A stretch of 64,000 nucleotides of DNA from Escherichia phage teqhad, in the sequence record NC_054933.1; one strand, 5' to 3'. The position numbers were made by a program, and so were the translations under genes. Position 1 is the stretch's first letter. Each line of letters opens with the position of its first letter. Positions 5,961 through 9,812 of this stretch are shown here, piece after piece. Under the pieces are notes generated by a model. The model made no database searches, had not been told where the DNA came from, and saw only the letters and a list, made by a program, of their open reading frames with translations.

Positions 5961-6019
5961 TTTATCCCTCCAAATAACTGTGAATATACTATCACAATTC
6001 TAGGAGAAAGTAAACAACT

Positions 6020-6988
<969 letters not shown>

Positions 6989-7007
<19 letters not shown>

Positions 7008-7477
7008 TCAGTGATAAAGTTATTTAAATTTTGAGTATATTTCTTTTCATCAAAAATCTTTTGCTGTCTGCGTAAACGCCATGGCATTTCAATGAACGTG
7101 TACCATATCCCAGATAATATTGCTGCTGTAAAAATATTAACAAGTATGGTTAAAATAATCCAATCTCCCGTTCTGTCTACTGGACTTTCTCCAAAGAAGC
7201 AAAATACAAATGATGTCACAGGAAAACTAATAATGTACCACAGAATCATAATTTTATCTGTGAACCAATCAGCATTTGTTAACTTAGCACGACCATTATG
7301 AATACACACGAATTTATCATCTGTTATAATAGATGGCTTAGCTGCTTGATATCCCATTCTAAACTCCCTAATCAACAAATTTTTCATATCTTCGGAACAA
7401 CCATTCCAGTCAACTCTATTAACTGAAATGCCATCATCCCCATCATCTAAATCATACCAGCGAGTTTTTAAAATCAT
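6989..7477 (-). CDS. small membrane protein (e.2-e.8 region), array member 1
   Basis: Central hydrophobic helices ILWYIISFPVTSFVFCFFG and WIILTILVNIFTAAILSGIWYTF; C-terminal tail FITECRKLK. Confidence 0.55.
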
Positions 7478-7836
7478 TTAATTTTCCTACAATCACTCAC
7501 AAACTCTTCCATTGATTCTTTTTCAATATAAGACATGTAGCTATTATATTCCTTTAATTGTATTTTGTAATCCTTTTTTCTTTGCCAATTTATTTTAAAA
7601 TTATCATAATGAAAATATAACATGGTACCAAAGAATGAAAATAATGAAATAATTTTAGTATAGTGAAGTTCACTCCAAACTTCTATTATATTTACTGTGC
7701 CGTCAATGTTTAAAATAAGACAGTCAATTAACAATCCAAAAAGACTACCCGCAAGAGCTGCAGCCAACGCTACAGCAAAAATTAAAAATGACTCAGGAAG
7801 AGAATATTTGACTTTATTTAGTTTTGGCTTTTGCAT
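7474..7836 (-). CDS. small membrane protein, array member 2
   Basis: TM helices; C-terminal EEFVSDCRKIK; TAAATG-type overlap with the downstream gene. Confidence 0.55.
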   Translation of the reverse strand: MQKPKLNKVKYSLPESFLIFAVALAAALAGSLFGLLIDCLILNIDGTVNIIEVWSELHYTKIISLFSFFGTMLYFHYDNFKINWQRKKDYKIQLKEYNSYMSYIEKESMEEFVSDCRKIK

Positions 7837-8231
7837 CGTGATTCCTTAACAAATTTCATAATTTCATCAAATTCATGCGCAGCAAGTTTAAGCTGATGTT
7901 CCTTTTTAATCTTTTTACACTGAGCTTTCCAATCACGTACACGTTTACGATAGTGTCTTCCTTGATACCAGTATCCTATCCAATTTATAGGTACTAATAA
8001 AAGCGGAACTACCAATGGAAGAATTAGTGTTGCTCCAAATATTGCACCAGATTCAATATCAGTCATAACGTCTATAACTATTCCAGCAATCAGCAGAATC
8101 ACAAATGATACGGCTACCACAGGACCTATTAACACATCAGTAGAAATTATCTGACGCTTTAATTCATACTTCAACGGTTTACTTGGAAGGTATAGTGATG
8201 GCTTTGACATATTCTCTACATTCCTTAACAA
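7818..8231 (-). CDS. small membrane protein, array member 3
   Basis: Two TM helices; tail KFVKESRCKSQN; true start probably ATG MSKPSLY near 8210. Confidence 0.55.
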   Translation of the reverse strand: MLRNVENMSKPSLYLPSKPLKYELKRQIISTDVLIGPVVAVSFVILLIAGIVIDVMTDIESGAIFGATLILPLVVPLLLVPINWIGYWYQGRHYRKRVRDWKAQCKKIKKEHQLKLAAHEFDEIMKFVKESRCKSQN

Positions 8232-8784
8232 ATTTTTCTAATAATAAATCGCTTTCAAAATTGGGATTTTCTACGAATTTATCAAAAAGATCATCAACAA
8301 TAGTTAAGATATTCTTTTTACTAAGAATACGTTTATTTTCATGCTTCGTTTCAGAATCAACTATAAGAGTAAAGAAATATTTCTTGCCCTGAAATTTTAC
8401 AGTAGTATCAATATAGAATAAATTTGACTTTTGTAAATTACGTTTAAACCATGCATCACTTAAACTATAAACACCAAGATAATCATAATCGTCGTTTAAA
8501 TAACATACTGTCCATTCAGGAGAAATGAAATCAGTAAATTCAACATCAAAATCACATGTTAATGAATGAATTGATTCAATACTGTTAATAAGTATTCCAG
8601 GACGTATTAAAGACTTTTTACCTTTATAAAATCCAGAAAGACTTTCATCAGTTTCATATGAAGAACCCCAATAATAATTACGTCCTTCTGCCATACGTTT
8701 AAGAGCATTTAATAATTGGTCTGGAACATCAACCTGTCTTTGGAACTCTTCAAACATTGAATTGAAATCACTTTGCATTTTCAT
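8179..8784 (-). CDS. hypothetical soluble protein (201 aa) at the head of the array
   Basis: ORF track; C-terminal EKFVKECREYVK encoded over the start region of the next gene. Confidence 0.55.
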   Translation of the reverse strand: MKMQSDFNSMFEEFQRQVDVPDQLLNALKRMAEGRNYYWGSSYETDESLSGFYKGKKSLIRPGILINSIESIHSLTCDFDVEFTDFISPEWTVCYLNDDYDYLGVYSLSDAWFKRNLQKSNLFYIDTTVKFQGKKYFFTLIVDSETKHENKRILSKKNILTIVDDLFDKFVENPNFESDLLLEKFVKECREYVKAITIPSK

Positions 8785-8825
8785 TCCTACTTACTCCAAG
8801 TAATAGGGGCCGAAGCCCCTTATCA

Positions 8826-9419
8826 TTATTTCAGAGAATTAATATATTCCTGAACATCGGCAGAGGTAGTTTCAACCCCAGAAATATTACCATTAAAGGT
8901 TTCAACTCGGGCGAGAGTATCTTCAATATCAACCTTAGTCAGCGCTGCAATTTCAACTACATCATCGGCAGTACTAATTCCAAGGGCATTCGCTGCACGA
9001 GTTTCACGGATATATTCCAATTTAACTGCAAGTTCTTGGCGAGCATCATCCAATTCAACTACTTTCTTGGCGATTTCAATTCGCATTTCAGCATAACCAT
9101 CAGCTTTAGTAGTCAACTGTTCAGCTGTTCGACGATATAGCAAGCCGAGTTTAGCATGCATTGTTACATCTTGACCTTCAGAAAGAAGCTTGCGAATTTC
9201 ACGCTCTTTTGATTCGGCCTGTCGATTCTTTTCGACAATAAGTTCACGAATACGTTTTTCTTCATTAATAGATTTAACAGAAGCAGTTTTTAGATCTTTA
9301 ATCTTATCAAGTAGTTTTGCTGCCGCAGCAGTATACTGTTCTTCAACAGATAGATTTTTAGCCATAGCAGAACCAAGTTTAGTGCGAATAAACTCAACAA
9401 TTTTCTTCAGTGTGTTCAT
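8826..9419 (-). CDS. coiled-coil protein with PspA/IM30-like character
   Basis: 197 aa, helical and charge-rich throughout with heptad-like patterning; weak resemblance to PspA-family helices. Confidence 0.5.
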
Positions 9420-9476
9420 AGTATTTCCTTAGGTTGGTATAATTAGATAATATCACGTTTCTAATAGATTGTAAAC

Positions 9477-9812
9477 TTATTCTTCGTCTAGCTCGTCGAT
9501 AAAGGCGTCGATGGCCTCGACAACGGCATCATTGATAGCCAATAAAATAAAATCATCGTCAGTACCTTTAGAAGATTTTAAAGCATTGATATATGCTTGG
9601 TTGGCGAGTTCCCAAGCCTTTTTAAAATAAGGAGCTTCATCATCGGGGCCAACGAAACGTACGCCTTCAAAGATACGGTTAGCATAATCCAATACCCACT
9701 GTACAGGCATGTTTTGAGAACGTTCGTTAAACTCTTTAAATTCCTTAGATTCAAAAAGCTCTTCAGGATAATCATTTCTATTACAAAAAGCTTTACTAAA
9801 GTTACGTTTCAT
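9477..9812 (-). CDS. hypothetical acidic protein (111 aa)
   Basis: ORF track; acidic C-terminus IDAFIDELDEE. Confidence 0.5.
   Translation of the reverse strand: MKRNFSKAFCNRNDYPEELFESKEFKEFNERSQNMPVQWVLDYANRIFEGVRFVGPDDEAPYFKKAWELANQAYINALKSSKGTDDDFILLAINDAVVEAIDAFIDELDEE

Follow-up and report, generated by a model that had tools for sequence, protein, structure and literature searches.

The closest described counterparts of the locus studied here are the genes e.2-e.5 of bacteriophage T4 (NP_049738-NP_049741; PHROGs 2203/35263, 2330, 2604 and 2607), whose products go by "conserved hypothetical" or "predicted membrane protein" in the annotations. Their orthologues in Escherichia phage teqhad (NC_054933.1), of which we analysed one stretch of 64,000 nucleotides (nt; referred to as the window in the following), show 72-95% protein identity and occur in the same order between e.6 and nudE. 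Here, we report that the proteins e.5, e.4, e.3 and e.2 end in a related peptide, i.e., F-[VI]-x-[ED]-[CS]-R in the window and F-[IV]-x-x-C-R across T4-like phages. We consider it likely that this early-gene block carries a peptide tag kept in its own right, that the overlap of the tag with ribosome-binding sites stems from gene packing, and that the repeats at the gene junctions serve as recombination points.

Individual features of the array are known from other systems. Translationally coupled genes that overlap in an ATGA and have the Shine-Dalgarno (SD) sequence of the downstream gene inside the upstream open reading frame (ORF) are found among trp operon pairs and many T4 genes, and the e.3/e.2 and e.2/nudE junctions are built in the same way. 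Unlike in ordinary coupled pairs, the SD-holding codons belong here to a peptide motif common to four consecutive genes. In the Psp system, the small membrane partners PspB and PspC bind PspA via cytoplasmic C-terminal helices; PspA and Vipp1 are members of the ESCRT-III superfamily. T4-type genomes furthermore contain PeSLs, i.e., intergenic promoter-plus-terminator units, for which a modular shuffling of ORFs has been described (PMC2839356; Comeau et al. 2014, PMC4122927).

On the minus strand of the window, the genes follow each other in the order e.6, e.5, e.4, e.3, e.2 and nudE, before the lysozyme gene e (Table 1). Directly before their stop codons, e.5 reads ...EKFVKECREYVKAITIPSK (i.e., FVKECR followed by EYVKAITIPSK; its end can also be given as ...FVKECREYVKAITIPSK), e.4 ...MKFVKESRCKSQN (i.e., FVKESRCKSQN), e.3 ...EEFVSDCRKIK and e.2 ...FITECRKLK. 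A first-pass annotation, made from the sequence without database searches, had taken the four tails to be related, and this holds, as do its coordinates and its other peptides; the end it gave for e.5, EKFVKECREYVK, is wrong, since the protein runs on with AITIPSK. The pattern F[VI]x[ED][CS]R has four matches in the six-frame translation of the 64 kb, all of which (4/4) are the tails of e.5, e.4, e.3 and e.2, compared to 0.39 matches on average, and never more than 3, in mononucleotide shuffles of the window. No motif was found near ORF ends in T4 positions 1-62,000 and 120,000-168,903 (111 kb), nor in the other overlapping gene pairs of the window or of the rest of T4 scanned. A hidden Markov model (HMM) built from 35 non-Tequatrovirus tails only and searched against 338 window ORFs places e.2 (E = 3e-4), e.3 (5e-3) and e.5 (0.03) on ranks 1 to 3.

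In an AlphaFold2 model of e.5, the tail is part of a C-terminal helix (residues 179-194). Given helix geometry, F and C (i, i+4) as well as I/V and R (i+1, i+5) of the motif would share one helix side. Among the relevant texts that our literature searches returned on T4 e.2-e.5, none described the shared tail motif. It appears to be undescribed that four adjacent genes, along with their counterparts across T4-like phages, share a peptide tag, and so do the wandering of the SD within the tag and the use of junction repeats in clean gene loss and fusion. The ORFs themselves are known already, and overlapping starts are routine in T4.

The tail is not confined to close relatives of the window. 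In the following, a tail that is given up to its stop codon is marked by "-stop". In Mosigvirus, RB69 has FIMECREY.. in e.5, FVKEIRCKSLNS in e.4, FIKECRK-stop in e.3 and FIKECRGK-stop in ORF133c, and there is an e.2-like FITECRNLR-stop. Dhakavirus shows FIEECRK-stop, Kanagawavirus FVKGCRNGRRS-stop and FVKGCRNGRN-stop, and the unclassified phage 212 carries the tail as well. Using the well-conserved e.6 as an anchor, further tails were recovered from Aeromonas phage 31, a 231-kb Aeromonas phage, Serratia X20, Yersinia fHe-Yen9-01, Pectobacterium PM2, Escherichia EcS1, Klebsiella PWKp16 and two metagenomic contigs. Carriers comprise two-transmembrane (two-TM) hairpins, e.2-like proteins and soluble proteins, the latter including three consecutive genes of the 231-kb Aeromonas phage. 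The gene that follows the tail varies by genus and can be e.4, e.3, e.2, nudE, a 78-amino acid (aa) gene or a member of the WVSSS family introduced below. Within the e.2 family, 14 diverse homologues (27-43% identity to the window's e.2) reach at least 85% column conservation only at N-domain residues, in GYQP and in the tail's F-I..C-R, and the distant representatives end in FIxxCRK-like tails in 7/7 cases.

For 33 tails, which stem from 12 phages and represent at least 10 lineages, the DNA could be compared. F, I/V, C and R are kept among them, while their codons vary: Phe is encoded by TTT (22) or TTC (11), Cys by TGT (19) or TGC (10), and Arg by all six codons (AGA 10, AGG 6, CGA 6, CGT 7, CGG 2, CGC 2). 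The SD of the next gene is found in x-E (AAGGAA, GAGGAA), K-G (AAAGGA), C-R-K (TGYAGGAAA) or R-G (CGAGGA) codons or past the motif, such that its 3' end is placed at +11 to +47 nt relative to the F codon. In e.5 of phage 212, FIAECREY is kept with the SD 18 nt downstream and wholly outside the motif; an 88-aa gene of PM2 keeps FIKSCRK-stop with the SD after the stop. Since F, I/V, C and R persist while codons vary and the SD moves or lies outside, these tails argue that the peptide is under selection in its own right, at the amino-acid level. The overlap with the ribosome-binding site would then be due to tight gene packing and not the reason why the peptide is shared. That is, the earlier proposal of a peptide co-encoded with the downstream ribosome-binding site is true as a description of this window, while codon variety and SD shifts among the 33 tails speak against it as an explanation of the shared peptide.

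In other genera, a second shared-tail family adjoins the array. It consists of small soluble proteins ending in W[VI]SSSxxC-stop or WxxSSC-stop, often followed by TAAGGAAA..ATG, and is absent from the array of the window. Some e.3 variants (91-97 aa; P0037-P0041 and similar) are frameshifted after WQRKK and end in ...RKKGLQNTIKRI, i.e., without the tail motif.

Next to the peptide, the tail codons of the window carry or directly adjoin the SD and the start codon of the next gene, just as the first-pass annotation had it. Start/stop overlaps amount to 32 nt for e.5/e.4, 19 nt for e.4/e.3 and 4 nt each for e.3/e.2 and e.2/nudE. The final 32 nt of e.5 overlap e.4 in another reading frame, the ATG of e.3 (7834-7836) spans R-C codons of e.4, and the two short overlaps are ATGA stop/start overlaps (7474-7477 and 6989-6992, respectively). 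All four SDs lie inside the upstream ORF, with anti-SD duplexes of -4.2 to -6.1 kcal/mol and spacers of 5-10 nt. Translational coupling across the array is plausible from this layout. Overlapping starts as such are common in this genome.

We also studied the RNA structure of the junctions. A modest hairpin is predicted over the e.2 start (-13 kcal/mol, z = -2.4 for positions 7440-7520), in which e.3 tail codons pair with the first e.2 codons. It could make the translation of e.2 depend on ribosomes that read e.3. No such structure is predicted at the other three junctions, and an Rfam search gave no match. As a positive control for the folding, we used the strong hairpin over the gene e ribosome-binding site (positions 6500-6560; z = -3.6), which matches a structure of T4 early transcripts that is known to keep gene e from being translated. 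With regard to the last junction, annotations differ in the start of nudE: RefSeq T4 and AR1 use an ATG that arises in GAATGC, where E and C of the e.2 motif are encoded (position 7007 in the window), while the T2 annotation uses the ATG at 6992, which has the AGGAAA SD.

At the nucleotide level, we compared the junctions anchored on their start codons, since e.5 reads 32 nt into e.4. J1 and J2 share the 16-nt perfect direct repeat AAATTTGTTAAGGAAT (8220-8235 and 7841-7856), the longest perfect repeat of the region, and their likeness resumes at the start codons (ATGTCAAAGCC vs. ATGCAAAAGCC). With a score of 18, their local alignment is among the best 0.6-1.5% when 3,486 pairs of gene-start windows are compared. 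J3 and J4 have TTTRTNANTGAWTGYAGGAAA..TTAAA.TGA in common and score 16 over 30 nt; if extended past the ATG, the score increases to 23 over about 61 nt (top 0.2% of the 3,486 pairs). This alignment reaches 34 nt into e.2 and nudE, which are unrelated genes in different frames there. Between the J1/J2 and J3/J4 types, DNA similarity is at background (top 4-79%). The two module types that had been proposed therefore exist, each above background within its pair, while a similarity beyond chance between the types is not found.

Natural variants reveal how such junctions behave. T2 lacks exactly e.2: its e.3/nudE border consists of the left half of J3 and the right half of J4, with the crossover inside the shared TGCAGGAAA. 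Both e.3, which now has the hybrid tail CRKLK, and the start of nudE are left intact. At Tequatrovirus-level identity, we find 501 records for e.5, 497 for e.4, 497 for e.3 and 446 for e.2, i.e., about 10% of Tequatrovirus records are without e.2. Around 40 records have a contiguous hybrid e.3/nudE border, and these comprise two e.3 alleles (FVSDCRKLK and FVIDCRKLK). Loss of e.2 is likelier than gain, as outgroups keep an e.2-like gene near nudE. In UFV11 (P0109; L003 2489-2809), residues 1-31 of e.4 are fused in frame to the C-terminal part of e.2 and e.3 is gone; the two parts meet within the first membrane helix, at the microhomology TCCTGTG. In the metagenomic protein P0118 (83 aa), an unrelated N-terminus is followed in frame by the last 34 residues of e.2. 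The expected copy-number variation across T-even phages is hence directly visible, both in the missing e.2 and in the e.4::e.2 chimera, and these products mark the junction repeats as recombination points.

PeSL cassettes and the array junctions are alike in that short repeated expression signals are found at gene borders in variable regions. The outcome is also PeSL-like, i.e., repeat recombination gives ORF-sized indels between close relatives, as in the T2-type deletion of e.2. Unlike PeSLs, the array junctions have no intergenic DNA, promoter or terminator. The sole strong hairpin (8805-8820) is located between e.6 and e.5, and a simple terminator scan flagged nothing on the coding (minus) strand at this hairpin. 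Furthermore, and again in contrast to PeSLs, the array repeat is inside coding sequence (C-terminal codons, SD and start) and encodes a conserved peptide, such that the products stay in frame.

In an alternative reading, the tail together with the junction would be a recombination module that is mobile, i.e., a coding analogue of PeSL cassettes. Such a module would spread between unrelated genes and allow the excision and insertion of cassettes, possibly via mini-circles, with the peptide kept mainly via the DNA. The direct repeats of about 61 nt that flank e.2 and extend into two unrelated genes in different frames would be expected from such a module, as would the single hybrid copy in T2-like phages and the same tail on unrelated bodies (e.5, the soluble Aeromonas-phage proteins, the P0118 fusion). 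The Tequatrovirus e.3 tail CRKIK is moreover closer to the e.2 type (CRKLK, CRNLR) than to its RB69 orthologue CRK-stop, and PeSL-mediated shuffling as well as mini-circles are documented in T4-type phages (PMC2839356). Selection at the DNA level, however, predicts the opposite of what is observed across genera, where the motif DNA varies at synonymous sites and the peptide is fixed; exact identity between modules is just 9-16 nt, and no circular intermediate or insertion event was observed. We thus regard a mobile module as unlikely.

We also assessed to what extent the genes themselves are related. At its N-terminus, e.3 has MxKPxL in common with e.4; towards the C-terminus, the two align over about 43 profile columns (hhalign 86%), and e.3 matches the e.4 family PHROG 2604 weakly (E = 0.05). 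For e.2, 49 columns are shared with other two-TM members (Q7622 gp135 and RB69 ORF133c; hhalign 95%), compared to 15 columns only with e.3 (79%). e.5 reaches at most 43% over 9-17 columns, i.e., it has the tail alone in common with the others. Several two-TM members of PM2 start with KPSKP-like N-termini like e.4, which supports a real family of two-TM paralogues. Taken together, the profile alignments provide modest evidence for whole-gene paralogy. The idea of cassette duplication is therefore weakly visible for e.3/e.4 and for e.2 and the two-TM members, and does not extend to e.5. In soluble carriers, the tail may have been inherited or acquired by recombination at a junction.

Kyte-Doolittle profiles show two strong hydrophobic segments for e.4, two for e.2 (both in its C-terminal half, behind a soluble N-domain with W..LDD..G....VDW.GC and before the tail), one strong and one weaker segment for e.3 (1.5-2.2 across orthologues), and none for e.5. 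This agrees with the prior assignment of two transmembrane helices to three members, with a weaker second segment in e.3. Reading from the sequence, e.4 has basic N- and C-termini and an acidic loop. From the charge distribution, the hairpins of e.2, e.3 and e.4 are predicted to be N-in/C-in, which would place all tails in the cytoplasm, i.e., in the same compartment as the soluble e.5.

Three small inner-membrane hairpin proteins from a variable early region with copy-number variation could also be superinfection-exclusion proteins or other membrane-acting antagonists of competing phages, as the first-pass annotation had suggested. Imm and Sp are small early proteins like those of the array and act at the envelope, and Imm is also a small inner-membrane protein. 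Both are without the tail motif and are encoded elsewhere in the T4 genome. A BLASTP search of e.2-e.5 in a nine-protein database found no similarity to T4 Imm, Sp, rI, rIII, Ac or holin (best E = 1.5 for Imm/Sp), and scans with the PADLOC defence-system models, Pfam and NCBIfam gave no meaningful match for e.2-e.5. Since e.5 and several motif-bearing relatives are moreover soluble, we consider an exclusion function to be quite improbable, and the sequence comparisons lend the suggestion no support.

The remaining alternative, i.e., that 3' ends encoding an SD and an overlapping ATG converged on K-E or R-K and the peptide has neither function nor common origin, can draw on the recurrence of SD-forming dipeptides (AAGGAA K-E, AGGAAA R-K, AAAGGA K-G, CGAGGA R-G) and on the Cys that the e.3 start codon dictates in e.4 (A-TG-C), but it is largely refuted by the codon data and highly improbable, since F, I/V and the position-5 Cys are unnecessary for an SD yet most conserved, each of the six Arg codons occurs, the motif is still there when the SD is 18 nt downstream or after the stop, and other overlapping pairs scanned in the window and T4 lack it.

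A tag selected in its own right, with packing-derived SD overlaps and recombining junctions, hence remains the reading we favour. Several observations weigh against it. e.4 fits the tail HMM poorly (rank 6, E = 0.76) and has Ser instead of Cys at motif position 5, its Cys two residues further on being the one forced by the e.3 start. The collection of distant tails is not fully independent, since the regular expression used was derived from this window. Pairwise BLASTP among e.2-e.5 detects nothing beyond the tails and the N-termini of e.3 and e.4, and the profile alignments are shallow. An exact identity of 9-16 nt between modules is short for ordinary homologous recombination, and outgroup synteny is the sole basis for the direction of the e.2 event. 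Finally, coupling, membrane topology, co-transcription with e.6 and an interaction role of the tail are parts that we infer from the sequence.

In the reading we favour, the array would work as follows. The genes e.5-e.4-e.3-e.2, packed head to tail downstream of e.6, are probably co-transcribed with it. Each protein would end in a short C-terminal helix with F-[IV]-x-x-C-R, and this tail may serve in the cytoplasm to bind one partner that all carriers share. Purine-rich codons in or after the motif (K-E AAGGAA and R-K AGGAAA; elsewhere E-E, K-G and R-G) would double as the SD of the next gene. With the next start in the tail or overlapping the stop as ATGA, a ribosome that ends one gene would be positioned to start the next. 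The phage recombination system would use the short direct repeats at the gene borders, such that a crossover inside TGCAGGAAA removes e.2 (T2 type) and the TCCTGTG microhomology fuses e.4 to e.2 (UFV11 type).

A candidate for the common partner is the product of e.6, which is much better conserved than its neighbours. Its structure model consists of an N-terminal helix and a long helical hairpin. In a Foldseek search against the PDB, Vipp1 takes the top 8 places, with E = 4e-4 to 1e-2 over about 200 columns, followed at lower rank by PspA and CdvB2 (archaeal ESCRT-III). At the sequence level, Pfam gives no match to the PspA_IM30 family, and a profile comparison with PDB Vipp1 yields a colinear alignment with E = 1.9-5.2 only, which is not significant. 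e.6 may be PspA/Vipp1-like. The tag is present in the gene directly downstream of e.6 in 12/12 lineages examined, although the respective proteins (93-273 aa) are otherwise dissimilar. Like in the Psp system, a helical-hairpin protein is followed by small inner-membrane proteins with predicted cytoplasmic C-terminal helices. Unlike there, e.3 and e.4 have two transmembrane segments and no PspB/PspC match, and the tag is also found on soluble proteins. One could speculate that the tag is a docking helix that recruits interchangeable membrane and soluble early proteins to a PspA/Vipp1-like e.6, i.e., a membrane-protection or remodelling system with swappable adaptors; we hold this to be a tentative idea with low odds of being correct.

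Table 1. Array genes and their neighbours, tail motif codons, Shine-Dalgarno (SD) sequences and junction modules; positions are those of the window unless a locus handle precedes them.
Feature	Position	Strand	Details
e.6	8826..9419	-	helical-hairpin protein directly upstream of array; conserved
Hairpin GGGGCUUCGGCCCC	8805..8820	-	UUCG tetraloop; in 41-nt spacer e.6/e.5
e.5	8179..8784	-	201 aa, soluble; ORF and translation; PHROG 2607, E = 2e-108
e.4	7818..8210	-	130 aa, two-TM hairpin protein, predicted N-in/C-in; PHROG 2604
e.3	7474..7836	-	120 aa membrane protein; PHROG 2330
e.2	6989..7477	-	162 aa; PHROG 2203, annotated 'membrane protein'
nudE	6552..6992	-	Nudix hydrolase, served by last junction; Pfam NUDIX E = 4e-13; PHROG 1185
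e.5 motif codons	8215..8232	-	TTT GTT AAG GAA TGT AGA (FVKECR)
e.4 motif codons	7836..7853	-	TTT GTT AAG GAA TCA CGA (FVKESR)
e.3 motif codons	7486..7503	-	TTT GTG AGT GAT TGT AGG (FVSDCR)
e.2 motif codons	7001..7018	-	TTT ATC ACT GAA TGC AGG (FITECR)
e.4 SD	8221-8226	-	AAGGAA (e.5 K-E codons); ATG 8208-8210; duplex -6.1 kcal/mol, spacer 10 nt
e.3 SD	7842-7847	-	AAGGAA (e.4 K-E codons); duplex -6.1 kcal/mol, spacer 5 nt
e.2 SD	7483-7488	-	AGGAAA (e.3 R-K codons); duplex -4.2 kcal/mol, spacer 6 nt
nudE SD	6998-7003	-	AGGAAA (e.2 R-K codons)
J1 (e.5/e.4)	8193..8235	-	AAATTTGTTAAGGAAT...ATGTCAAAGCC..ACTA
J2 (e.4/e.3)	7819..7856	-	AAATTTGTTAAGGAAT...ATGCAAAAGCC..ACTA
J3 (e.3/e.2)	7440..7503	-	left direct repeat flanking e.2; contains TGTAGGAAA at 7483-7491
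J4 (e.2/nudE)	6956..7018	-	right direct repeat flanking e.2; contains TGCAGGAAA at 6998-7006
Second shared-tail family loci	L019 3731-4526 (RB69 ORF139c-136c); L020 3691-4272; L029 7832-8391; L031 7553-8060; L032 8407-8951; L036 5567-6617		

The identity of the genes is clear from their setting. The window belongs to a Tequatrovirus and spans about T4 coordinates 60-124 kb. Over positions 6000-9500, identity amounts to 99.1% with phage slur04 and to 94-97% with T4, T6, AR1 and many others, in which the order of the genes is retained. T2 and RB69 are syntenic too. Full-length PHROG matches support e.2-e.5 between e.6 and nudE (E = 1e-60 to 2e-108), and the ATG of e.4 at 8210 corresponds to the annotated start in T4. 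Homologues of e.5 bear the precomputed Pfam family PF26876 (Phage_T4_Y06P). PDB sequence searches with e.5, e.2 and e.6 gave no match. Word-indexed protein searches with e.3 and e.5 returned hardly anything but close relatives, with a 47% homologue of e.5 as the most remote match; an exhaustive search with e.2 resulted in 13 clusters that are informative about tails and not about function, and an IMG/VR scan with nudE in four T4-like loci. In some GenBank records, product names on these ORFs look artefactual (sulfurtransferase, DNA primase, major capsid protein, host specificity protein).

With regard to their importance for the phage, e.2-e.5 are dispensable early genes, as indicated by a broken T4 copy of e.2 and by knockdown data. 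While e.2 of the window is intact (162 aa), the copy of the T4 reference (NC_000866.4) is interrupted and annotated with 102 aa, which fits a dispensable gene. This reference e.2 has two stops and is then back in the original frame, and several other T4 records match in two pieces only. A published genome-wide knockdown screen (PMC11879866, supplementary files 8, 15 and 25) gives e.2-e.6 as genes of unknown function and has the label 'Not Fit' on the guides shown for them; the knockdowns had no effect on fitness.

The tag on otherwise unrelated small proteins downstream of e.6 provides a concrete handle on unexplained T4 gene content. At the junctions, one DNA stretch takes three roles, i.e., peptide motif, ribosome-binding site with the next start, and recombination point, and with this arrangement, whole genes can be lost or fused while the neighbours on both sides stay intact. 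If the docking idea were true, the in-frame junction repeats would be a means to gain, lose and recombine adaptors. For annotation, the motif can flag family members in T4-like genomes that now have empty or wrong product names.

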